Shown one piece after another: positions 6,032 to 45,311 of a DNA stretch of 64,000 nucleotides. Below the pieces are notes generated by a model, which saw only the letters and a program-made list of their open reading frames with translations, ran no database searches and was not told the DNA's origin. Each line of letters starts with the position of its first letter. Position 1 is the first letter of the stretch. The position numbers and the translations under genes were made by a program. Source of the stretch: Clostridia bacterium (GTDB taxonomy: Bacteria > Bacillota > Clostridia > TANB77 > CAG-465); assembly GCA_045637095.1 (NCBI GenBank), contig JAZTYX010000054.1, positions 1,373 through 65,372 on the forward strand. The letters are read 5' to 3'.

Positions 6032-7618
6032 ATGTATAATTTGGTTATGAAAACAAGGGTAATTGAAAAAATAAATAATAGTTATATATATGTAGTAATA
6101 TTAGCAGTATATGTCATTGTAACGCTTGGTATATCTATGCTAATTACAAAACCAAATAACAAAGAGACAAACATAATCGTTAATGGCGAGACCTTGAACT
6201 TAAAAAACGGTGTTGTAAATATAAAAGGGACAAGATATATTACTAGAAAAGACATAGAAGAAAATTTTTTCGAACATGTTTTTTACGATAAAATTTCTAG
6301 AACTTTAATAATTACTACATGGGATGAAAAAATAAAAATAAAAAAAGGTGACACAGGTACTATAGAATACGAAGCAGAAACTGCATATAGCATAAAGAAT
6401 TTGGCAGAAAAGTTAGGCTATGAGTATATTGAAGATGCTAAAACAAACGATGTATACATATATAACTACACAGAACAAGATGTTAAAATAAAGAAAAATA
6501 GAGTAGAAGTGTATAGTTTGGAGAATAAATGTGTTGTTGGTGTTGTGGAAAAGAAAGACAAAATAACACTACTTGAAACAGAAGCTGTGTATAAAGAGAG
6601 CAAAGACAAACTACTTACAGTAAAAATAACAGATAAAGATGGCAAATCGTATATAGCAAGAATAAGTAAAGATAAGGTGGAGTATATCCCAAAAGTTAAA
6701 GATCTTATAAAAACAGATAAAGATATGATTGTAATTACACATGTAGAAAACAAGGTGGCAAGTACAACAGATTTGACTAAAGTAGACGCGTTAGCTATAG
6801 AGATGTTACAACTTAATTCATCAAATAAGCTAACAACTAAAAAATACACTTTACCAGATGCTAAAGATGTAGATGTATATGCTGTAATAGATAATGGATA
6901 TAAGTCTACAGGTTTTGATACAAATATAATTACTGACCTAGTTCATAGCGATAAAAATAAGGAAATAGTTGCAGAACAGGTAATAGATTTTGTAATGGAA
7001 AATGAACTTGCTGGAATTGTAATAGACTTTAAGAAATTTAAGAAGTCAGATAAGGATTTGTTAGAGCAATATATAAAAGAATTAGCTGTATTAATGCATG
7101 CTAATAACAAGAAAATACTAGTAAAAATGCAAGCTATTGATTCGTACAATATTATAGATATAGAATATTTTGTAGATCAGATAATATTGCAAGCCTATGG
7201 AACAAGAACGGTAGCTTCTAAAACAGCAGGTTCTCATTCATCTATTATTTATATAATGGAAATGATGGATGAAATAGAGAAAAATGTGTTAGATAGAAAA
7301 AAGATAATATTAGAAATTCCAACATATTCAATTTTATGGACAGAAAGAGGCGGAACAATAATAAATGCAGAAGAATATTCTATGCAAGCAGTAAATGAAT
7401 ATTTGAAAGAAAATAATATTACACCAGAATTTAATAAGGCTTCGGGACAGAACTATGTTAGCTATACTAAAGGAATAATTACATATAAAATGTGGTTAGA
7501 AGATGAATTTAGCATAGGCAAGAAAATGGGAATGGCATATTACCAAGAATTTGCGGGAATATGCATATACAAAAGCGGAGAAGAATTAAAAAGCATCTAT
7601 AGTATAACTATAGAATAG
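6032..7618 (+). CDS. Membrane-anchored protein with a GH18 (chitinase-like) domain that has a degenerate catalytic motif
   Basis: N-terminal TM. The C-terminal region VIDFVMENELAGIVIDFKKF aligns to the GH18 DGxDxDWE motif with D1 to A, D2 to V and E to K, so it is predicted inactive. First gene of an operon with two pilin-like genes. Confidence 0.45.
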   Translation: MYNLVMKTRVIEKINNSYIYVVILAVYVIVTLGISMLITKPNNKETNIIVNGETLNLKNGVVNIKGTRYITRKDIEENFFEHVFYDKISRTLIITTWDEKIKIKKGDTGTIEYEAETAYSIKNLAEKLGYEYIEDAKTNDVYIYNYTEQDVKIKKNRVEVYSLENKCVVGVVEKKDKITLLETEAVYKESKDKLLTVKITDKDGKSYIARISKDKVEYIPKVKDLIKTDKDMIVITHVENKVASTTDLTKVDALAIEMLQLNSSNKLTTKKYTLPDAKDVDVYAVIDNGYKSTGFDTNIITDLVHSDKNKEIVAEQVIDFVMENELAGIVIDFKKFKKSDKDLLEQYIKELAVLMHANNKKILVKMQAIDSYNIIDIEYFVDQIILQAYGTRTVASKTAGSHSSIIYIMEMMDEIEKNVLDRKKIILEIPTYSILWTERGGTIINAEEYSMQAVNEYLKENNITPEFNKASGQNYVSYTKGIITYKMWLEDEFSIGKKMGMAYYQEFAGICIYKSGEELKSIYSITIE

Positions 7619-7628
7619 AGGAGGATAT

Positions 7629-8081
7629 ATGAAAAAAAGAGGTGTTACTCTAATTACTTTAAGTATAATTGTAGCGGTAATGGCTATTCTTACAGCAGTA
7701 ACAATAACTATAGGAACAGACATACATACAGGTGCGCAAAAAGCTAGATTTCAAGCTGAAATAGCTCAAATTGAAATACTTACAAGTAATTATATAAGAA
7801 GAAATTCTGGAAATGATTTTACACCATATACATGGAATGTTACATCGCTTTCAGGTTATGATGAATCTCAATTTGAAGGTGAAATAATAACAGGTGGCAA
7901 CATTAATGTATATGTAGTAGACTTAACAAAGATAGATGCAGAAGAAGTAAACGATGGCCTTTTAGAAAATGGTGCAAATGATAGATATTTGTATTCTGAA
8001 CAGACAGGTCATGTGTATTATGAAAAAGGCAAAACTTTTGGTAGTAAAGTATACTACAGAGTTTCAGAATTAGAGGAGTAG
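7629..8081 (+). CDS. Small pilin-like / signal-anchored protein (family member 1)
   Basis: Strong SD GAGGAGG. N-terminus MKKRG|VTLITLSIIVAVMAILTAV resembles a class III prepilin leader but lacks Phe+1 and Glu+5. Its globular part is homologous to the N-terminal domain of the next gene (YLYSEQTGHVYYEKG against IYAYSELTGRVYYLNG). Confidence 0.55.
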   Translation: MKKRGVTLITLSIIVAVMAILTAVTITIGTDIHTGAQKARFQAEIAQIEILTSNYIRRNSGNDFTPYTWNVTSLSGYDESQFEGEIITGGNINVYVVDLTKIDAEEVNDGLLENGANDRYLYSEQTGHVYYEKGKTFGSKVYYRVSELEE

Positions 8082-9656
8082 ATGAAGATGAGATTAAAAA
8101 AAGGAATAACAATGGCTATGCTTGTTGTTATAGTTGCAGTGCTAGGAATATTAGCAACTGTAACAGTAACATCCATATCTAATAGTTATACAAACTCTAA
8201 ATTAGCTATTTGGACATCCGAAATTAGTATTGTACAAGATCTGATGAAAGAGAAAAGAGATAACCTATCAAATATTTTAATGGATGAAATAACATTTGAT
8301 GTTTCGGGTATATCTCAAACAACTTTAGCAGAACAATTTTCTGGAGAAACAATAATATCAAATAAACTTACATTAAAAGAAATAAATCTTGCGGCTATTG
8401 GAGTAGACAATGCGTTATATGGAGTTCACAAAGATACATTAGATATATATGCGTATTCTGAACTAACAGGTAGGGTGTATTATCTAAATGGCTTTGATGC
8501 AAGAATAAAAGAATATTACACTTTAACGCAAGAATTAAAAAATAAATATGGAGATAACTTAACAGTATCTAATTTATCTCTAATTTCTTTTGAACAAAGT
8601 GAAATAGAACCAACAATGAATGCGGTTAAAGTTACTGTTAAAGTACCTAAAACATATACAACAGTAAGCATAACAACAACAAATTCAAGTATAACAGTTG
8701 GTTCAAGAGTAACAGAAACAGATAAATATACATATCCAGTAAATACTAATGGAATAAAAGGCAATTATACAATAACGGTAACTTATACAGAGGGTGGAAC
8801 AACAAAGACAGTTACACATAAAGTAACAAATGCAATATCTACTTTGGGAGCTTTAATTACTAGCGCGCAGGATTACGGTAAAACAGTAGATTATGTATCA
8901 GACAATGGCGTTAAAAAATGGAATGTGTTGTATGAGGATACTACCAATGGGTATATTTATCTAATAGCTACTGAAAAGTTGGCATATAATAAAATGCCAA
9001 CAATACCAGGTGCGACAATAACATCATCTGCAGTAACTCTTGAAAATGGCACATCTAAAAATGTTGGGCAAATAAATTGGGTAAGCGTACCAACAGGAAC
9101 AACAGTTGCTAGTGATGCAAAAACAAAATGGAAAGCTGAATGGTCATCGTATACATCTGGAACAAACGCAAAATGTATATCATATTTTCTAGATGAAACA
9201 TATTGGACAGGACTAAAAAATACAACAGCAGCATACAAAGATTATGTATTAGGTGCAATAGGTACACCAACAGCAGAACTATTTGTACTAAGTTGGAATG
9301 CTAAAAGAGCTGCAACAAACAATACAACTATATACAACAAACAAATATCTTTAACGGTAAGAAGTACGACTACAGGCTACTACGTAAAAGATGCATCAGT
9401 GTCTACCAATACATATCTTCAAGCATTAACTACAGGAGATAAATTGTATGTGTGGAATAATTCAGAATTATCTACAACATGGTTAGCTTCACCAGGAGCT
9501 GTTACAGCAAATTATATATTAATAATAGGTAGTACAGGAAATTTAAGTTATGATACATATAGTGCATCTAACCGCGGAATAAGACCGGTAGTGTGTCTAA
9601 AGTCAGATACACCGGCAGTTTTAGGGACAACAACAGATTATAGTTTAATAAAATAA
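8082..9656 (+). CDS. Large pilin-like / signal-anchored surface protein (family member 2)
   Basis: N-terminus MKMRLKKG|ITMAMLVVIVAVLGIL. Thr-rich beta-type middle region. The C-terminus (TTWLASPG...NRGIRPVVCLKSD) shares a motif with the 23019 and 44046 proteins (YWLAT...VRAVVTLA.D). Confidence 0.55.
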   Translation: MKMRLKKGITMAMLVVIVAVLGILATVTVTSISNSYTNSKLAIWTSEISIVQDLMKEKRDNLSNILMDEITFDVSGISQTTLAEQFSGETIISNKLTLKEINLAAIGVDNALYGVHKDTLDIYAYSELTGRVYYLNGFDARIKEYYTLTQELKNKYGDNLTVSNLSLISFEQSEIEPTMNAVKVTVKVPKTYTTVSITTTNSSITVGSRVTETDKYTYPVNTNGIKGNYTITVTYTEGGTTKTVTHKVTNAISTLGALITSAQDYGKTVDYVSDNGVKKWNVLYEDTTNGYIYLIATEKLAYNKMPTIPGATITSSAVTLENGTSKNVGQINWVSVPTGTTVASDAKTKWKAEWSSYTSGTNAKCISYFLDETYWTGLKNTTAAYKDYVLGAIGTPTAELFVLSWNAKRAATNNTTIYNKQISLTVRSTTTGYYVKDASVSTNTYLQALTTGDKLYVWNNSELSTTWLASPGAVTANYILIIGSTGNLSYDTYSASNRGIRPVVCLKSDTPAVLGTTTDYSLIK

Positions 9657-23018: not shown

Positions 23019-24332
23019 ATGAAAAAGGGAATATCATTAATAGTATTAGTTATAACTATAATTGTTATGATAATCTTAGCAGTATCTGTTGTAATTACGC
23101 TAACAAACACAGGAATAATAAATAAAGCAAATCAAGCGGTAAGCCAAACAAATGAACAACAACTCCAAGATTTAGCTGCACTTTTATGGGCGGATTCATA
23201 TATGGCTGGTAAAAGAGGAATAGAGCTAAAAGAAGAAGTTTTAGAACAATTAAAAGAATATAAAACAGATTATAGAATTCTTGTTACAGACAACGGTGTA
23301 ACAGTGCAAGATAGAAAAAATATTGACTGGAAAATGGTTAGAGAATATGATGAAAATGGGCTAATAACAAAAGTAATGTTAACAGATGGAATCGAGTCAT
23401 ATGAAATAGGAACAACTGTTAACTATATGCCAAGTGGAATTGGACCAACAAACTATAAATCTGGTTGGAAACTACTTGGAGTAGATGAACAAGGAAGATT
23501 GTTATTGATGTCTGCTTCGGATATATTAGGAGCTAAATTAAATGGAGAAGAAGATTTTGTAAATGGAATACAAAAGTTAAATAATTTAGTAGCAGATTAT
23601 AAAGATGGAACAGTAGGTATATCTTCAAGAAGTATAACTGTAGAAGATATAAATAAGATTACTGGATTTACACTAGAAGATGCAAATTCAACAGAATATT
23701 TGGCGTACAGAGTTGCATATAATAAACAACAAGGTATTGGCGGTACAGAAGAAGAATTATTAAATGGAGTATTACAAACAATGGGATTTTCGGATATATC
23801 TCAAGCTTCAATTTTAGATAGTGGCTTGGATATAAATATATCGTGGGATGGTACAAGATATCCTAAATGTACATATGTTCAAGATGGAGTTACTAAAACA
23901 TATAGTTTGCAAGCAGAACATAATTGGAATGGATTTAGATACTATGATGCCAAAACAAATAAATTTGTAACAGCTCCTTATGCAGAACAAGGCGAAATAA
24001 CTACAGTAACTAATAAGTTGTATGCTTATGATGGATTAGCAAAATATTCAGCGGATTCTAAAGCATATAAAATGCTATTTAAATATCCAAATAGTGAAAT
24101 TTTGGCTGGATATTGGTTAGCAACACACTATACACGAGTTAATGCTAAAGCGTACTTTATGGGGATGCATTATGTACATAGTGGTTTTGTAGCAGCTACA
24201 TATTTAATAGGTTCTCACAGCGGTAGTGCAGAATCAAGTTCTAGTGTTAGAGCGGTAGTAACTCTTGCACCAGATGCTGAACTTGTGGAAAGTACAAACA
24301 ATATTGGAACATATAACATTATAAAGGATTAA
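23019..24332 (+). CDS. Pilin-like / signal-anchored surface protein (family member 3), probably co-transcribed with smc
   Basis: Starts 20 nt after the smc stop, with SD GGAGG. N-terminus MKKG|ISLIVLVITIIVMIILAVSVVITL. Full-length paralog of the 44046 protein. Confidence 0.6.
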   Translation: MKKGISLIVLVITIIVMIILAVSVVITLTNTGIINKANQAVSQTNEQQLQDLAALLWADSYMAGKRGIELKEEVLEQLKEYKTDYRILVTDNGVTVQDRKNIDWKMVREYDENGLITKVMLTDGIESYEIGTTVNYMPSGIGPTNYKSGWKLLGVDEQGRLLLMSASDILGAKLNGEEDFVNGIQKLNNLVADYKDGTVGISSRSITVEDINKITGFTLEDANSTEYLAYRVAYNKQQGIGGTEEELLNGVLQTMGFSDISQASILDSGLDINISWDGTRYPKCTYVQDGVTKTYSLQAEHNWNGFRYYDAKTNKFVTAPYAEQGEITTVTNKLYAYDGLAKYSADSKAYKMLFKYPNSEILAGYWLATHYTRVNAKAYFMGMHYVHSGFVAATYLIGSHSGSAESSSSVRAVVTLAPDAELVESTNNIGTYNIIKD

Positions 24333-31358: not shown

Positions 31359-32627
31359 ATGAAGAAAAAAATAGTAGCAATTTTATTTGTATTCGTTTTA
31401 ATGTTAACAACATTTAGCAGTACATATGGAGTAGAATTATTAAATTTAGGGATATATGAAACAGCATATAAATTAAGTAAAGATAATGATATAAATTTAC
31501 CGTTTATTAATGTTTTTGAAAAAAGTGCCACTTATGATAAAACAGTAAAACATTCTGGAATAACATTTGGTGAAACTACAATTGATGTGGAAGATAAATT
31601 AGAAGGTGTGCACGGAATCTTTACTGGAGATATGGTTACAATAAAAGGTGAAGTAGAACACGCTTTAATTGTAGCAAATAATGTAGTGATAGAAGGAAAA
31701 GTATCTGACGACACAGTAATAATAGCTGAGAAAGTACAAGTGATGGAAAATGCTATTGTTGAAAGAGATATCGTTATAGTATCTACGGATTTGGATGTAT
31801 TAGGAACAGTTAAAGGTAACTTAATAGCAGCTTCATTAGATGCAAAAATATCAGGAACAGTAGAACAAGATCTAAGAATATTAACATCTACTTTGGATTT
31901 AGAAAATAGTACAATAAAAGGAAGATTAGAAGCTGAAGTAGGTTTTGAAGATGTAAAACAAGAGATAATATCAATGTATCCAGAAGCTATAGTTACTAAG
32001 AGTGTAGAAAAAGAAGATAAGGTAAATGCAACAAGAATAGTAATAAAAGGTATAAAAACAGTATTAGTATATACATTTGTAGCAATGTTAATAACTAAAA
32101 AAGATAAATCTGTAGCTACAAAGATGTCAGCAAGATTTATGGAAAATTCAACATTTGGAGTGTTATCTTCAGCCGGACTATTAATAATAGCACCATTTGT
32201 TCTTATTATATTAATACTTGCAGGTGTATTTGGTTTAGGAATAATTGCATGGCCTGTGTTAGTGGTTTTTGTATCAACAATATTATTAACATTAGCGCTA
32301 AGTCAATTAATAGTAGGACTATTTATTTATGAAGTATTTAAGAAAAAAGCAAGTAAATATAGAATGTTAGTGTTAGCTATAATATATACTGCGCTATTTG
32401 CATTAACACAAATACCAGTAATATATTCATATGCAATAGTAGCAATTTCTTTAGTAGCTTTAGGATTGGTATTAACATACATATTTAAGAAGAACGAAAC
32501 ATCAGAGTTTATTGATGCGAGTGAAGATAAAGTAGTAAAGATAGAAGAAACATTAACAGAACAACCAAAAGAAGAGACTAAAAATGAGTCGAATGATAAA
32601 GCTAAAGGTAAAAATAAAAAGAAATAG
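31359..32627 (+). CDS. Secreted/membrane protein with a bactofilin-like (polymer-forming beta-helix) domain and a C-terminal 4-TM region
   Basis: Signal peptide, then a bactofilin-type repeat pattern (VTIKGEVEHALIVANNVVIEGKVSDDTVIIAEKVQV...), then four hydrophobic helices and a Lys-rich tail. Confidence 0.55.
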   Translation: MKKKIVAILFVFVLMLTTFSSTYGVELLNLGIYETAYKLSKDNDINLPFINVFEKSATYDKTVKHSGITFGETTIDVEDKLEGVHGIFTGDMVTIKGEVEHALIVANNVVIEGKVSDDTVIIAEKVQVMENAIVERDIVIVSTDLDVLGTVKGNLIAASLDAKISGTVEQDLRILTSTLDLENSTIKGRLEAEVGFEDVKQEIISMYPEAIVTKSVEKEDKVNATRIVIKGIKTVLVYTFVAMLITKKDKSVATKMSARFMENSTFGVLSSAGLLIIAPFVLIILILAGVFGLGIIAWPVLVVFVSTILLTLALSQLIVGLFIYEVFKKKASKYRMLVLAIIYTALFALTQIPVIYSYAIVAISLVALGLVLTYIFKKNETSEFIDASEDKVVKIEETLTEQPKEETKNESNDKAKGKNKKK

Positions 32628-32643
32628 TTGAATAGTAATTATT

Positions 32644-32670
32644 AAAGAGGACATATGTCCTCTTTTTTGT
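32644..32670 (+). terminator. rho-independent terminator
   Basis: Palindrome AAGAGGACAT-ATGTCCTCTT followed by TTTTTGT. Confidence 0.75.
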
Positions 32671-32706
32671 AACACGAAACGTAAATTAACATACAATATA
32701 CTAGAT

Positions 32707-33153
32707 GTGAAAACATCTAGAAAGGCAGACTTAAATATGAATAGATGCTGTAGAAACCAAGGAATGTATGGAAACCAAGGATGTCAATCAACAGGCTCAC
32801 AATATTGTAATTATGATACAACAATAGTAAGCTATATCGAAGGTCCAGTTGGACCACAAGGCCCAATGGGAAGACCAGGATTAACAGGACCACAAGGCCC
32901 TCAAGGACCAGCAGGACCAGTTGGACCACAAGGACCACAAGGAATACCTGGACCAACTGGTGCGACTGGCGCTACAGGTGCAACTGGAGCCACAGGCCCA
33001 GCGGGTGCGGATGGATTAACGCCGGTACTAACAATAGGTACTGTAACAACAGGTGCGCCAGGTACTCCTGCAGAAGCTAGTATAACAGGAACAGCTCCTA
33101 ACTTTGTGCTTAATTTAACAATTCCACAAGGTGAACCAGGAACACCAGCTTAA
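32707..33153 (+). CDS. Collagen-like (GXX repeat) protein, BclA-like exosporium/spore-surface candidate
   Basis: About 25 G-X-X triplets ([55 protein letters not shown]) followed by a roughly 45-aa C-terminal domain. The start is uncertain: GTG at 32707 or ATG at 32737. Confidence 0.65.
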
Positions 33154-40205: not shown

Positions 40206-40210
40206 GATAA

Positions 40211-40247
40211 CCCTCCAAACACAAAGTTGTTTGGAGGGCTTATTTTA
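40211..40247 (+). terminator. rho-independent terminator after truB
   Basis: CCCTCCAAAC-acaaa-GTTTGGAGGG followed by CTTATTTT. Confidence 0.85.
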
Positions 40248-40260
40248 TGCGCTTTAATAA

Positions 40261-40560
40261 AAAGGTACGCTTTTTTTGACCTATTAGATAGAAAACAAAA
40301 GATAAGTTAAAAAGTATAGAGGGGGGGTAGCCAATTATATTTAGATAGAAAGGAGGAGTGAAAATTAAAAAGGTTCTAAGTAAATTTATATTAAGTGTAG
40401 CAAGTGTGATTTACTACAGGTACCACATAAATTTATATTAAGTAACAAACTAAAGATAAAAGGTGTGTGGTAAACGACCTATTAAATAGAAAACAAAAGA
40501 TAAAGTTAAAATAAAGAACAAAAGGTGTGTGGCATTTTTATATTATATAGAAAGGAGAGA
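40261..40560 (+). repeat. Imperfect direct duplication of a roughly 100-bp intergenic unit (promoter/RBS-containing) upstream of a tandem small-gene pair
   Basis: Unit 1 (40261-40355) and unit 2 (40459-40560) share AAAGGT..GACCTATTARATAGAAAACAAAAGATAARGTTAAAA ... TTATATT..ATAGAAAGGAG. Unit 2 ends in the SD of the 40566 gene, whereas unit 1 is followed only by a 29-codon remnant. Confidence 0.7.
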
Positions 40561-40565
40561 TAAAA

Positions 40566-40832
40566 ATGGATAAACAATTTATAGAGAATGACTTTAAGTA
40601 TAGGGAAATAGAGAACTCTATATCGGATGATCAAGGTATAATATTCAAAGCTTTGATAAAAGAAGAACCAAACATTTTACTTTACACTAGAGATTATACA
40701 TTTGGACAAGTAGTGTTGTTGATGGTTGCATTAGAAGATACGTTGAAGTATTTAATTAAAGATTTTCCTGAAGCGTATGCGATAACTCTAGATGCTGATT
40801 TAGAAATTACAAAATATGTGGAATGGAAATAA
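40566..40832 (+). CDS. Small hypothetical protein (88 aa), tandem paralog A
   Basis: SD AAAGGAGAG. Shares the QVVLLMVALEDTLKYLIKDFPEAYAITLD core with the next ORF. Confidence 0.6.
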   Translation: MDKQFIENDFKYREIENSISDDQGIIFKALIKEEPNILLYTRDYTFGQVVLLMVALEDTLKYLIKDFPEAYAITLDADLEITKYVEWK

Positions 40833-40885
40833 CAAAAGAAAGAATTATCATAAAAATATTATTAAAAAGAAGGAGGAATTAAAAA

Positions 40886-41158
40886 ATGGTAAGTAGAATT
40901 AAAGATAATGAAAAAGCGAAAAGAAATTTAGAAAGGTTAGCACTGGAGTCAGAACACGGCTTAATGTTTGCAGCATATATAGGAGGAGAATTAGATAATG
41001 TAGTAACTTGTCTAGAAGAAAACAGAACTACTGAATATCAAATGATACAGCTGATGATAGCATTAAAAGAGACATTAGAAGAACTAATAAAACAACATAC
41101 AGAACTATATGCTGTTGCGCTAAATGAATTACCCGAAACAGAATCAATTCTTATTTAA
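40886..41158 (+). CDS. Small hypothetical protein (90 aa), tandem paralog B
   Basis: SD AAGGAGG. Core QMIQLMIALKETLEELIKQHTELYAVALN is paralogous to the 40566 protein. Confidence 0.6.
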   Translation: MVSRIKDNEKAKRNLERLALESEHGLMFAAYIGGELDNVVTCLEENRTTEYQMIQLMIALKETLEELIKQHTELYAVALNELPETESILI

Positions 41159-41220
41159 TAAACAACTTGCAAAATTATCATTCTTGTATTATTATATAGT
41201 TGTTAATAGGAGGTACAAAT

Positions 41221-42385: not shown

Positions 42386-42419
42386 ATAAATTGTGATTGA
42401 AAAGGAAGGTGTAATTATA

Positions 42420-43466
42420 GTGAAAAAAGGGAGTGCCCTCAGAACACTAAGATTCATATTTATAACAGTCGTATTATTTGTACTATCATTTAGTGCAGCG
42501 GTAGTAACAGTATTAAATGTTTATGTACCGCAATATATAGCAAAAATAGACGGAGAACAAGTTGGATATTTTACAAGTCCAGCGGAGTTTGATGAAGTTT
42601 ATGAAAAAATAGTTGATGAAAAAGAAGCTGATGGTTTAGAAGTTAAAGTATATTTACCAGCAGAACCAGAATTTGAATTAACATATGTAGTAGATTCAGT
42701 TACAGAAGAACAAAACTTATATACAAATATGAGAGCTTTTGTAAAAACAGAATATACAACATATAACGTGAACGTAAAAGGTAAAACAGAGCTTACATTT
42801 GCAACTAAAGCGGAAGCAGATGAATATGCTAAAAAAATAAAAAACGCAGTTAAATCTACAGTTAAATCTACAGTTGAAGTTAAATCTGTTGTTACAGAAG
42901 AATTAGTAGGTACAACAGAAAAAGCTTCTGTTAAAAAGATTTATGATAATGTAGTAAGTAGATATAAACCAGTTGTTAGAACATATAGCCCAACATATTG
43001 GGTAACTACTGGTAAAACGAAATATGGTAAAAAAGCATCTGGAGATTTACATGCATTTATATCAGGTGGTGTAAGACCAGCTTCTGGTGTTGTAACACAA
43101 AATTATGGTCCTAGTGCATATTATGCAAGTGGTATGCATACAGGAATAGATATAGCAAGTAAGGGAAGTAAGTATGTTCCAATATATGCATATAAATCTG
43201 GTACAGTTGTAAATGCAGGTACAAATGGCGATTATGGTAAATGTGTTATCATAAGCCATGGTAAGGATGCAAACGGTAATGAACTTCAAACATTATACGC
43301 TCACCTTAGCAGTATAAATGTTGTTAAAGGTCAAACAGTATCTATGGGACAAGAAATTGGTAAGATGGGTACAACAGGACGTTCAACTGGTGTTCACTTA
43401 CACTTTGAAATAAGAGTGTTAGGTGGAGGATATAAAACATTCTATAACCCAGCATATTATATTTAA
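42420..43466 (+). CDS. M23 family (LytM-type) metallopeptidase, membrane-anchored
   Basis: Intact HxxxD (HTGIDIA) and HxH (HLHFEI) motifs. N-terminal TM. GTG start chosen downstream of the promoter, with SD AAGGAAGG. Confidence 0.8.
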   Translation: MKKGSALRTLRFIFITVVLFVLSFSAAVVTVLNVYVPQYIAKIDGEQVGYFTSPAEFDEVYEKIVDEKEADGLEVKVYLPAEPEFELTYVVDSVTEEQNLYTNMRAFVKTEYTTYNVNVKGKTELTFATKAEADEYAKKIKNAVKSTVKSTVEVKSVVTEELVGTTEKASVKKIYDNVVSRYKPVVRTYSPTYWVTTGKTKYGKKASGDLHAFISGGVRPASGVVTQNYGPSAYYASGMHTGIDIASKGSKYVPIYAYKSGTVVNAGTNGDYGKCVIISHGKDANGNELQTLYAHLSSINVVKGQTVSMGQEIGKMGTTGRSTGVHLHFEIRVLGGGYKTFYNPAYYI

Positions 43467-43595: not shown

Positions 43596-43949
43596 ATGAA
43601 AGATTTTACAAATAATAATTACAACGCTAATGAATTTGCGTATAAGGACGAGGCAAGAGTTCGTGGTATAAGTCTAAAGGGATTAATTGTAATATTAGTT
43701 ATAGTAGGTATGATATTTGGTAGTATTGCAGAGGAATTAAATATTGAATTAGGCGGAAGAAGTAAATATACTATAGACGAGATAGAGGAAATGGCGGAAG
43801 ATTATTGGGAAGATGCCGAGTTTATGGGATATAGTAGATACGAAAGAGAAGATTATGCGATGGATAAGCTTGAAGATAGAGGAGTAGAACTAGAAAGATA
43901 TAATATAAAATTTGATTACAAAGGAGAAGTAGACGTACGAGCTAAATAG
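43596..43949 (+). CDS. Small hypothetical single-TM protein with an acidic C-terminus
   Basis: One TM helix (LIVILVIVGMIFGSI). SD AGGAGGA. Confidence 0.5.
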   Translation: MKDFTNNNYNANEFAYKDEARVRGISLKGLIVILVIVGMIFGSIAEELNIELGGRSKYTIDEIEEMAEDYWEDAEFMGYSRYEREDYAMDKLEDRGVELERYNIKFDYKGEVDVRAK

Positions 43950-44045
43950 AGTTAATTAAAATAACAATTGAAATTAGCAAAGTAATACATAGCTAAAACT
44001 ATGTACTGCGTTGCTTTTTGTATGCAAATAAAGGAGAAATGAAAA

Positions 44046-45311
44046 ATGCAAAAGAAAAAAGGTATATCGTTAATAGTTTTAGTCATTACAATAATAGTAA
44101 TGATAATATTGGCAGCAAGTGTTGTAATAACGTTAAGTAATACGGGAATAATAAATAGAGCAAATCGAGCTGTAGAATTAACAAATGAAAGTCAAGTGCA
44201 AGATTTAGCTGCATTAATATGGGCGGATGCTTATATGGATGAATTGAGAGGAACAGATTTAGTAAATAAAGTAAAAGAAGATTTAGATAAAAAAGGTATA
44301 AAAGAAGCTGAATGGAAAATAACAGTAACAGATAGTGGAGTTAGTGTTATAAATAAAGCAAATATACCAGTTCCGAAATGGGAATTAAAAAGAACAACAA
44401 ATGATTCGGGAATAGTTACAAAAGTAATAGTTACAGATGGGACGAGTGAAATAGAAGTAGGTTCTACTATAAATTATATGGTAGACGGAGTAGGAGATAC
44501 AAACTATAAAGGTGGATGGAAACTACTCGGTGCTGATGAAAATGGAAGATTATTGATAGTATCAACCGCAGATCTTGGTATAACAGGAAGCAACATTACA
44601 ATAGGAGATAATGCTAATTTTGATACTTGTAAAACAAGTATGGAAGGTGCGTTAACGACATTGCAAAATACAGTTAATAGTTATAAAGATGGAACAATCG
44701 GAGTAGAAGTTAGAAGCATAAGAATGGATGATGTGGATAAAGTAACAGGATTTGATCCTAAAACATATACAACATATTTTATGAATGCGGGCAACGTTAA
44801 TTCGTATGGGCAGGAAGTAAAATACGAATGGGATAATAATGCTGTAAAATATACTTGGAAAAACGGTGATGAAACAGTAACCGGTACATTGGAAGGACCA
44901 CATGGGGGTTATACATATTTTGATGAAACAACAAACAAGATTATAACAAGTGCAAAAGCAGCTTCTGGAGATATAGTAACGTTAAAAGAAAGTTATTATG
45001 GATATACAGGTAAAAACGTTCTGAGTGAAGAAACATTATCATATAAGATGTTATTTAGAAATTCAACAGATACAGCTAATGTAGCATATTGGTTGGCCAC
45101 AAGAAGTGTATTAATGTATTATGATTTTACAAATTTTTGTCTGGGGATTGTAAGTAGTAATTTTGCTAATCCTGGTGCACTAAGCATAGTAGATTCAATG
45201 GGGATGTATAGTGCATATTCATTCCCTGTTCGTGCGGTGGTGACGTTAGCAGCTGATGTAACTCTTACAGAAAGTAAAACAGTATCAGGCGCGTATGATT
45301 TAAACAAATAA
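44046..45311 (+). CDS. Pilin-like / signal-anchored surface protein (family member 4), immediately upstream of the dcw cluster
   Basis: N-terminus MQKKKG|ISLIVLVITIIVMIILAASVVITL. Collinear similarity to the 23019 protein, including the C-terminal YWLAT...VRAVVTLAADV. Confidence 0.6.
   Translation: MQKKKGISLIVLVITIIVMIILAASVVITLSNTGIINRANRAVELTNESQVQDLAALIWADAYMDELRGTDLVNKVKEDLDKKGIKEAEWKITVTDSGVSVINKANIPVPKWELKRTTNDSGIVTKVIVTDGTSEIEVGSTINYMVDGVGDTNYKGGWKLLGADENGRLLIVSTADLGITGSNITIGDNANFDTCKTSMEGALTTLQNTVNSYKDGTIGVEVRSIRMDDVDKVTGFDPKTYTTYFMNAGNVNSYGQEVKYEWDNNAVKYTWKNGDETVTGTLEGPHGGYTYFDETTNKIITSAKAASGDIVTLKESYYGYTGKNVLSEETLSYKMLFRNSTDTANVAYWLATRSVLMYYDFTNFCLGIVSSNFANPGALSIVDSMGMYSAYSFPVRAVVTLAADVTLTESKTVSGAYDLNK

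Follow-up and report, generated by a model that had tools for sequence, protein, structure and literature searches.

We examined a stretch of 64,000 nucleotides (nt) from a Clostridia bacterium (GenBank assembly GCA_045637095.1, contig JAZTYX010000054.1, positions 1,373 to 65,372 of the forward strand), hereafter the window, which carries four open reading frames (ORFs) whose products begin like type IV prepilins and are treated here as candidate pilus subunits. The window is chromosomal DNA of a low-GC (~30%) Firmicute, with the housekeeping genes smc, rpsO, nusA-infB-rbfA-truB and mraZ-rsmH-ftsL-pbp-murE-mraY-ftsW-murG. The four ORFs, named by their first nucleotide (7629, 8082, 23019 and 44046; Table 1), are all present on the plus strand where a preliminary description, made from the letters alone, had placed them, and a six-frame regular-expression scan of the window found pilin-like N-termini in exactly these four. 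Each has the basic leader ending in Gly that had been described, although the literal pattern M-K-K-(R/K)-G given for it does not hold in every case. The residues that follow the Gly are indeed non-canonical, with V, I, I and I at position +1 and T, M, V and V at position +5 of 7629, 8082, 23019 and 44046, respectively. Nor does the window encode PilB, PilC or PilD, as had been noted: ORF inspection, tblastn searches with Escherichia coli HofB, HofC and GspE/F/O, a scan for catalytic motifs and Pfam searches of unannotated neighbours found none of them.

Table 1. Coordinates of the features discussed; positions refer to the window unless preceded by the number of a locus fetched from a related genome (L). 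aa, amino acids.
Feature	Position	Strand	Length	Description
7629	7629-8081	+	150 aa	candidate leader MKKRG, then VTLITLSIIVAVMAILTAV (VTLIT...)
8082	8082-9656	+	524 aa	candidate leader MKMRLKKG, then ITMAMLVVIVAVLGILATV (ITMAM...); bimodular, with residues 1-150 a 7629 paralogue (leader followed by ITMAMLVVIVAVLGILA) and residues ~251-524 an adhesin-type module ending TWLASP...GIRPVVCLKSD
23019	23019-24332	+	437 aa	candidate leader MKKG, then ISLIVLVITIIVMIILAVS (ISLIV...); helix ISLIVLVITIIVMIILA..., ~100-aa pilin module, ~300-aa C-type-lectin-fold module
23019, tail	24111-24266			YWLAT...VRAVVTL end; hypervariable pattern weaker than in L007-L009
44046	44046-45311	+	421 aa	candidate leader MQKKKG, then ISLIVLVITIIVMIILAAS (ISLIV...); same helix as 23019, lectin-fold module
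44046, tail	45087-45248			YWLAT...VRAVVTL end; hypervariable pattern weaker than in L007-L009
Conserved 5' leader of 44046	43958-44045	+	~90 nt	stem-loop AGCAAAGTAATACATAG / CTATGTACTGCGTTGCT, T-run, palindrome-like TTTTGTATGCAAA, ribosome-binding site
PilD homologue	L086:5807-6634; L087:5807-6643; also L089-L091			A24_N_bact domain (methylase-type, four-Cys), E 7e-28 and 1e-28
Hypervariable tails	L007:11117-11290; L008:3280-3453; L009:1071-1244			
GH18-like protein	6032-7618	+	528 aa	membrane-anchored; Pfam Glyco_hydro_18, E 5e-13
M23 peptidase	42393-43466			membrane-anchored, peptidoglycan endopeptidase family, E 5e-28; upstream of 44046
Single-pass membrane protein	43596-43949		117 aa	no family match; upstream of 44046
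truB / epimerase-like gap	40206-41199			two ORFs of 88 and 90 aa
Slot without family member	32628-32706			follows gene 31359-32627
Collagen-like small ORF	32707-33153			GPx/Gxx triplet repeats, reminiscent of exosporium or surface collagen-like proteins
Terminator-like hairpins	L007:9870-9912; L007:11365-11407		43 nt each	flank the P0006 gene, 98% identical

The four ORFs belong to something far larger than the four-member family that was first proposed. Homologues of 23019 number more than 815 at E<=1e-3, nearly all of them from uncultured 'Clostridia bacterium' metagenome-assembled genomes (MAGs) and gut metagenomes, and the expansion is lineage-wide. Counting distinct members within the fetched DNA, which gives lower bounds, the family has at least 30 members in the MAG JAZOWO, at least 23 in JAZSJJ, at least 16 in JAFXEC, at least 12 in JAZSRF, at least 10 in JAFXHJ and at least 7 in JAZRSA. 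More than 577 pattern matches occur among GTDB species representatives, the best 80 coming from just eight MAGs. The window DNA itself is 84-96% identical, where aligned, to the fetched loci of JAFXHJ, JAZOWO and JAZRSA.

What these proteins have in common is their N-terminus. Among the 120 best matches to 23019, the pattern K-x-G-ISLIVLVITIIVMIILA-x-x-(V/I)-x-x-(T/S)-L-x-N-x-G-I-I hardly varies while the remainder of the proteins is 30-50% identical, and many matches align over the first ~100 residues only (57-69% identity) before continuing into unrelated domains (FGE-sulfatase, Big_2, LRR_5). Of 220 family sequences, 96% have G and 4% have A at position -1, after K, R or Q, and 96% have I and 4% have V at +1; I at +8, T at +9 and M at +13 are conserved at ~100%. 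Position +5 is V in this set, a residue preset by the regular expression that selected the 220 sequences, and the 120 unselected matches carry the same residue. In the 220 sequences the Gly or Ala at -1 and the next 17-28 residues are near-invariant, the remainder being 30% identical or unrelated, and the family as a whole shows next to no variation in the 28 residues that follow the Gly (ISLIVLVITIIVMIILA...). Candidate leaders range from 4 to 20 residues, mostly 4 or 6, and the helix breakers are replaced in most members, position 14 being I or V and position 22 I, L or V. To judge from the alignments, such constraint is the pattern expected for recognition by a machinery and for helix packing, and not that of a generic anchor.

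Support for the pilin reading offered in the preliminary description comes mainly from the gene clusters of relatives. A tblastn search with E. coli HofC uncovered a T2SSF/PilC gene that immediately precedes a family member in L029, and homologues of this PilC led to complete type IV pilus clusters in L086 (GCA_054291765.1), L087/L088 and L089-L091, the latter including GCA_017521005.1, which is the JAFXEC MAG and belongs to the clade of the window. The cluster opens with a gene for a 337-aa pilin-like protein (G/ITLIN; the slash follows position -1), then encodes Asp23, a 572-aa protein that we call PilM/N-like from its position and a weak, sub-threshold PilN match (Pfam E 0.026), and proteins of 233 and 116 aa. 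It continues with a 125-128-aa protein (MKKGISLIVLVITIIVMIIIAGAIIISLN...) which is the presumed major pilin, a 275-aa PilD-like protein, two small pilin-like proteins of 144 aa (KRG/ITVSS) and 58 aa (KRG/SATLAV), PilB (T2SSE, E 6e-94), PilT (T2SSE, E 6e-33) and PilC (T2SSF, E 7e-30), and a modular member of the family stands directly after pilC. The 128-aa form of the presumed major pilin (MKKGISLIVLVITIIVMIII...), placed between the 116-aa gene and the PilD-like gene, has an N-terminus (MKKGISLIVLVITIIVMII...) identical to that of the family and bears no cargo module. No canonical GFTLIE-type pilin is encoded in the pilus clusters of these relatives, from which we infer that the subunits, if the machine is functional, must be non-canonical proteins.

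Two of the window ORFs are related to the gene that heads this cluster. The product of 7629 is 29-32% identical (E 5e-15) to the 337/339-aa protein encoded at the 5' end of the cluster in L086/L087, and the N-terminal half of 8082 matches the 337-aa protein of L086 at E 3e-30 (BLASTP). The start codon of 8082 directly abuts the stop codon of 7629, and the domain that the two were said to have in common was confirmed: 7629 and the first 150 residues of 8082 are paralogues (BLASTP, 30% identity, E 1e-12) with a common stretch, YLYSEQTGHVYYEKG / IYAYSELTGRVYYLNG, that is also repeated in the DNA at 78% identity. With its 17 homologues, the 7629 subfamily is narrow and always keeps the gene order GH18-like, 150 aa, ~522 aa, rpsO, as in L001-L003. 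Some of its members (P0134-P0136) start with a GISLIVLVITIIV-type N-terminus instead, so that both N-terminal types form one superfamily. A further member, P0122, is 91% identical to 7629 and shares a 90%-identity cluster with P0258 (IKK84_01820, 150 aa); the latter probably belongs to JAFXEC, the sole basis for this being that its accession number and that of the MAG's PilC (MBR6613487 and MBR6613689) lie 202 apart.

The second half of 8082 has relatives elsewhere in the family. Over its C-terminal 274 residues, the protein shares 45-51% identity (E 1e-74 to 1e-89) with modules at the C-terminus of GISLIV-type members in L067, L029 and L039, and the module is 30-33% identical to other members that give sub-threshold matches to DUF6273. 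Since this module is also found on the N-terminal module of the major-pilin type, the same cargo has been joined to two different pilin modules, which amounts to module shuffling. Taken on their sequences, 7629 and 8082 are most likely minor-pilin-type proteins, paralogues of the gene at the head of the pilus cluster.

The remaining two ORFs resemble the presumed major pilin. 23019, which begins 20 nt past the smc stop codon, and 44046 align with each other from end to end at 39% identity (E 2e-84). The N-terminal 59-63 aa of 23019 are 52-54% identical to the 125/128-aa pilin of the cluster, and 44046 shares 69% identity over 104 aa with the family member that immediately follows pilC in L086. 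Structure prediction with AlphaFold2 (AF2), one of the checks proposed at the outset, gave the expected layout for 7629 and 23019, with an N-terminal helix of 53-60 residues followed by beta strands. The model of 7629 (predicted local distance difference test score, pLDDT, 76.7) has a helix at residues 6-58 and then six strands in a small beta domain, its transmembrane segment being of low confidence (residues 1-27, pLDDT <50); that of 23019 (pLDDT 91.6) has a helix at residues 3-62, then a helix and a beta hairpin. The C-terminal module of 23019 adopts a C-type lectin fold.

The C-terminal motif WLA(S/T)...R(A/P)VV.L was correctly reported at the ends of 8082, 23019 and 44046, but neither BLASTP nor hhalign finds significant similarity between the 8082 tail and the tails of 23019 and 44046; the motif thus appears to be a fold-level signature shared by the three proteins and no sign in itself of close homology. 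Searches of the C-terminal domains against Pfam were similarly mixed. Residues 456-508 of 8082 match DUF6273 (PF19789) below the gathering score (E 0.0085, 16.4 bits against a cut-off of 23.5), and 23019 and 44046 do not match it at all. Across 103 family members, Pfam matches comprise LRR_5 of the BspA type (10), DUF6273 (6, up to E 3e-15), LRR_8 (3), GLUG (2), Sialidase_N and fn3; most C-terminal modules match nothing. The C-terminal modules, of up to 700 aa, are predicted to be binding domains and not enzymes. The combination by which modular pilins have been recognised, a pilin module with an extra module (PMC8179133), is seen in 23019, with its lectin-fold module, and in 8082, whose module is common to other members. 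The larger proteins of the window may therefore be read as modular pilins, a design already described (PMC8179133), and 23019 and 44046 are most likely modular pilins that present a C-type-lectin-fold (DUF6273-like), predicted ligand-binding module.

With moderate confidence, we propose that the four ORFs encode subunits of a lineage-specific type IV pilus, similar to type IVa pili (T4aP), in an uncultured clade of low-GC gut Clostridia. The proteins would insert into the membrane N-in/C-out through their hydrophobic alpha1N helix, and a PilB/PilC/PilM-N-O machine would extract them and stack their alpha1 helices into the core of a filament that PilT retracts. Because all paralogues share the alpha1N of the major pilin, they could be incorporated interchangeably, and a single machine might present dozens of adhesin modules at the tip of the pilus or along it. 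The modules so displayed (lectin-fold, BspA-type leucine-rich repeat (LRR), GLUG, FGE-like and immunoglobulin-like) would give a binding specificity in the gut that is both broad and changeable. The filament core would have to pack without the canonical salt bridge between Glu5 and the N-terminal amine, resembling in this respect the archaeal type IV filaments. Of this scheme, the sequence family, its architecture, the lectin fold and the clusters of relatives are observed, and cleavage of the leader, polymerisation and an adhesin function are inferred.

Several observations weigh against this proposal and deserve to be set out together. The models PF07963 and TIGR02532, against which the N-termini were to be checked, do not match the four window proteins at E<=1, and Pfam and NCBIfam give no significant family match to any of them; whole-pilin models match below threshold (PRK10574, E 0.008; GspG, E 0.03; TadF, E 0.39). 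When the profile of the N-terminal module is aligned to E. coli GspG and PpdD with hhalign, the register is as expected (KKG/ISLIV against QRG/FTLIE) at a probability of 1-3%, and the best sequence match in the PDB is MshA at E 0.6. Phe+1 and Glu+5, which matter for methylation and assembly in canonical systems, are missing in all family members. All four window genes are dispersed singletons amid housekeeping genes, as are most family members elsewhere, and dozens of pilin paralogues per genome are far above what characterised pili possess; many of them could be monomeric, membrane-anchored proteins. Given that two defining sequence features were tested for and not found, the four ORFs are not proven members of the canonical prepilin family.

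Processing of the leader is a further difficulty. The Peptidase_A24 domain is absent from the PilD homologue of the cluster, the only one encountered, in both lineages examined, as is the GxGDxK motif; where the first catalytic Asp is expected, as located by eye on a canonical PilD, one lineage has D and the other S. The C-terminal half of this protein resembles a pilin with Glu at +5 (KKG/ALSSEILVAV, AG/ALNSEVLIAI), unlike every other pilin of the system. The 1.3 Mb of related loci yielded no A24 catalytic motif, the GxGDxK expression matching the E. coli control only; these are sampled genomes and the result is not evidence of absence. Searches with E. coli GspO by tblastn and phmmer likewise returned nothing, the probe being weak enough to miss even the A24_N genes. 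Prepilin peptidases are described as bimodular, with a methylase (IPR010627) and a peptidase (IPR000045) domain, some being without the methylase; the reverse arrangement is not mentioned (PMC10191384).

The main alternative is that the proteins, or most of the paralogues, are pilin-derived membrane anchors that are no longer polymerised, the helix serving as an uncleaved signal-anchor and the ~100-aa module as a stalk that holds lectin, LRR or other modules on a monoderm surface. We regard this as unlikely but credible. A PilD homologue deprived of its peptidase domain, loci empty of the A24 motif, the missing Phe1 and Glu5, leaders as short as 4-6 aa, a scatter of at least 30 paralogues among the housekeeping genes of one genome, and modules of up to 700 aa that are hard to fit along a filament would all suit it. 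A generic anchor, however, needs neither an invariant Gly at -1, nor 28 invariant residues, nor a conserved head domain, and it leaves the same N-terminus on a cargo-less 128-aa protein of the pilus cluster, and a modular member directly after pilC, to be explained. Modular pilins that carry bulky modules, moreover, are known to assemble into pili (PMC8179133, PMC9934059).

We consider it highly improbable that the four are no more than ordinary surface proteins, type II signal-anchored or Sec-secreted, with a coincidental likeness to class III leaders and no pilin ancestry. Such a reading, entertained in the preliminary description as a plain signal-anchor, draws on the fact that no sequence or profile test against canonical pilin N-termini reached significance and that a Foldseek search of the small model against the PDB returned nothing at E<3 and no pilin match. 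It is disfavoured because the Gly at -1 and the whole helix are invariant, and by the operon context, in which the identical N-terminus occupies the pilin position of a PilM/N-PilB-PilT-PilC cluster that offers no other pilin candidates; the alignment register with GFTLIE pilins, moreover, is exactly as expected. Cleavage of a Sec signal peptide by signal peptidase I was considered and rejected, the hydrophobic stretch of ~25 residues, too long for the h-region of such a peptide, running as one helix into the head domain in the AF2 models. Also improbable, if somewhat less so, is that the proteins are parts or substrates of a pseudopilus like those of type II secretion or Com systems, engaged in protein export or DNA uptake and not in pilus-borne adhesion, with the modular members as cargo-like pseudopilins. 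In source annotations, some homologues go by the names 'type II secretion system protein' or 'pseudopilin PulG', and a link to secretion has been reported for the type IV pilus genes of Clostridium perfringens. The PilT-type retraction ATPase and PilM/N/O-like proteins of the cluster nonetheless mark a T4aP and neither a Com nor a type II secretion system (scheme in PMC10191384), and the C-terminal modules are predicted binding domains and not enzymes.

The lectin-fold tails of some relatives offer a second line of interest. In several of them a hypervariable stretch of 40 codons lies between YWLAS and RAVVTLA, in proteins that are otherwise ~85% identical. The tails in L007, L008 and L009 have an A content of 0.14-0.17 and a GC content of 0.48-0.54, against 0.41 and 0.34 in the gene body, and invariant tail residues use A-poor codons. 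Variable sites fall at codon positions 1, 2 and 3 in the numbers 24, 22 and 12 within 40 variable-region codons, compared to 7, 5 and 13 within 72 flanking codons (Fisher p 0.008). The tails of the window are mildly A-depleted (0.25 in 44046, with 0.41 in the gene body, 0.29 in 23019 and 0.34 in 8082), and that of 23019 is not hypervariable, with 4 positions differing from a 92% orthologue. Domains of the DUF6273/C-type-lectin kind are known targets of diversity-generating retroelements (DGRs) (PMC10743442), and surveys of these elements mention targets of the GspG pilin type only in passing (PMC11661182). For the relatives alone, the composition and variation of the tails resemble those of a DGR variable region and hint indirectly at targeting by a DGR.

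A DGR next to the family genes was rejected as the source, no reverse transcriptase (RT), Avd or template repeat having been found in the sequences covered. Neither the RT motif nor tblastn with Brt and Avd identified RT or Avd genes in the 1.3 Mb of loci, near ~100 family genes or in the window, and no template-like repeat of the tails was found in the window or beside the gene for P0006 (in L007). A pattern built from the conserved 5' end of the variable region (VR), which is present in both VR and template repeat (TR), matched no viral contig, and a 15-mer scan of metagenome contigs gave chance matches alone, in unrelated high-GC soil contigs. The Bordetella phage protein Mtd, Treponema TvpA and the phage tentaclins (PMC10743442) have, like some members of this family, a C-type-lectin-fold module with a hypervariable stretch just before the C-terminus. 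The DGR-diversified type V pilus adhesins of Bacteroides (bioRxiv 10.1101/2024.11.15.621889) place an adhesin on a pilus, a known theme among DGRs and one proposed here, but the scaffold in the window family is a type IV pilin and not a type V one. DGR systems possess an RT and a template repeat, whereas none was found near the family genes covered or in the window.

Combining these strands, one may imagine a system in which no aspartic prepilin peptidase ever acts on the subunits: its PilD would have lost the peptidase domain and fused the methylase-type domain to a pilin-like module, its core would lack the Glu5 bridge and pack through an invariant, all-hydrophobic alpha1N, its dozens of modular pilins would share one filament machinery, and some of its lectin tips would be hypermutated in trans by a remote DGR. 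We offer this bolder version speculatively and think it rather doubtful. If true, an unprocessed pilus coupled to a remote DGR would constitute a programmable repertoire of pilus-borne adhesins.

Identity by blastn of ~80% to more than 20 paralogue loci starts ~90 nt upstream of the 44046 ATG and delimits a 5' leader common to about a quarter of family genes (~25 paralogues) in several genomes; 44046 has it and 23019 does not. Its layout is a hairpin with a T-run, a long stem-loop (AGCAAAGTAACACATAC...GTATGTGCTGCTTTGCT) with a second T-run, a perfect 14-nt palindrome (TTTTGCATGCAAAA) and a ribosome-binding site. The leaders of relatives fold at -17 to -23 kcal/mol (z -2.6 to -5.5), and their alignment contains compensatory changes in the stem, of which RNAalifold on a MAFFT alignment recovered a part only; the stem is partly degenerate in the window copy. 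No Rfam family matches the leader, for which attenuator, stabiliser and operator are possible roles.

Family genes also vary by presence and absence: in relatives with 84-96% identity to the window over the aligned parts (L008, L009, L073, L077), a given chromosomal slot, itself fixed, may hold a member or none. The gap between truB and the epimerase-like gene, for example, holds a member of 189, 379, 213 or 480 aa in relatives, and L008 has a 433-aa member after its orthologue of the gene that precedes the empty slot of the window (Table 1). In L007, the gene for P0006, between its two hairpins, looks as if it was inserted or duplicated along with its terminator. The GH18-like gene, for its part, lies immediately upstream of 7629 with a gap of 11 nt, which makes its product a possible operon partner. 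Read from the sequence, its catalytic motif is degenerate (AGIVIDFKK against DGxDxDWE, i.e. DxxDxDxE) and the catalytic Glu is missing; the protein is probably non-catalytic.

Type IV filaments are defined by a class III signal peptide, by its cleavage through a bifunctional PilD and, in bacteria, by a core contact involving Glu5. Archaeal type IV pilins and archaellins have class III signal peptides without Glu5, which are cleaved by PibD, FlaK or EppA and served by archaeal machinery. In outline, they share with the window family a short basic leader ending in Gly or Ala and a hydrophobic alpha1N without Glu5, and with most of its members the lack of the Gly14 and Pro22 helix breakers. Unlike them, the window family is bacterial and accompanied by T4aP-like machinery (PilB, PilT, PilC, a PilM/N-like protein and an A24_N_bact domain), and the archaeal pilin N-terminal models of Pfam match none of the four proteins at E<=1. 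The DUF1559 proteins of planctomycetes comprise tens of pilin-like N-termini per genome, dispersed and fused to other domains, in diderm phyla and with a GFTLIE motif. This expansion is similar in number, dispersal and fusions, but differs from the window family in its canonical GFTLIE methylation motif and diderm hosts.

The nearest parallel in a monoderm Firmicute is that of Streptococcus sanguinis, whose PilB, with a von Willebrand factor A module, and PilC, with a lectin module, likewise join a small N-terminal pilin module, headed by a class III-type leader, to a bulky ligand-binding one (PMC8179133, PMC9934059); there, too, at least one such gene lies in the pil cluster and pilus-borne adhesion has been proposed. 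In S. sanguinis the IPR012902 motif of the pilins is canonical and their cleavage is the work of a complete PilD, whereas in the window family the motif is undetected, Phe1 and Glu5 are missing and the PilD homologue has no peptidase domain. Moreover, S. sanguinis has two modular pilins, in contrast to the dozens of paralogues per genome seen here, with modules mostly of the DUF6273/C-type-lectin fold or BspA-type LRR. The survey of modular pilins found its members through IPR012902 (PMC8179133) and would consequently have missed this family. In known systems, Glu5 of one subunit pairs with the N-terminal amine of its neighbour, and normally only the minor pilin that caps the tip is without it (PMC10191384). 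Tip minor pilins of the GspK/PilK/PilX type also lack Glu5, may carry extra domains and are thought to cap the filament (PMC10191384). Such systems thus have one subunit without Glu5 per filament, whereas here the presumed major pilin and every other member lack it, and the only E5-like residue of the system sits in the pilin-like C-terminal half of its PilD homologue.

A whole bacterial pilus system without Phe1 and Glu5, and without the protease domain of PilD, would test which of the accepted rules of assembly are required. As the family is invisible to the IPR012902/TIGR02532 motif, surveys of pilins and of modular pilins count too few of them in gut Clostridia. The invariant helix of 28 residues with its variable cargo would be a natural scaffold on which to study how pili accommodate bulky subunits. 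For the organisms themselves, the presence of dozens of lectin and LRR modules per genome on pilin anchors, some with DGR-like hypervariable tips, suggests that anaerobes of the ruminant and other guts possess a major adhesion repertoire that has gone unrecognised.

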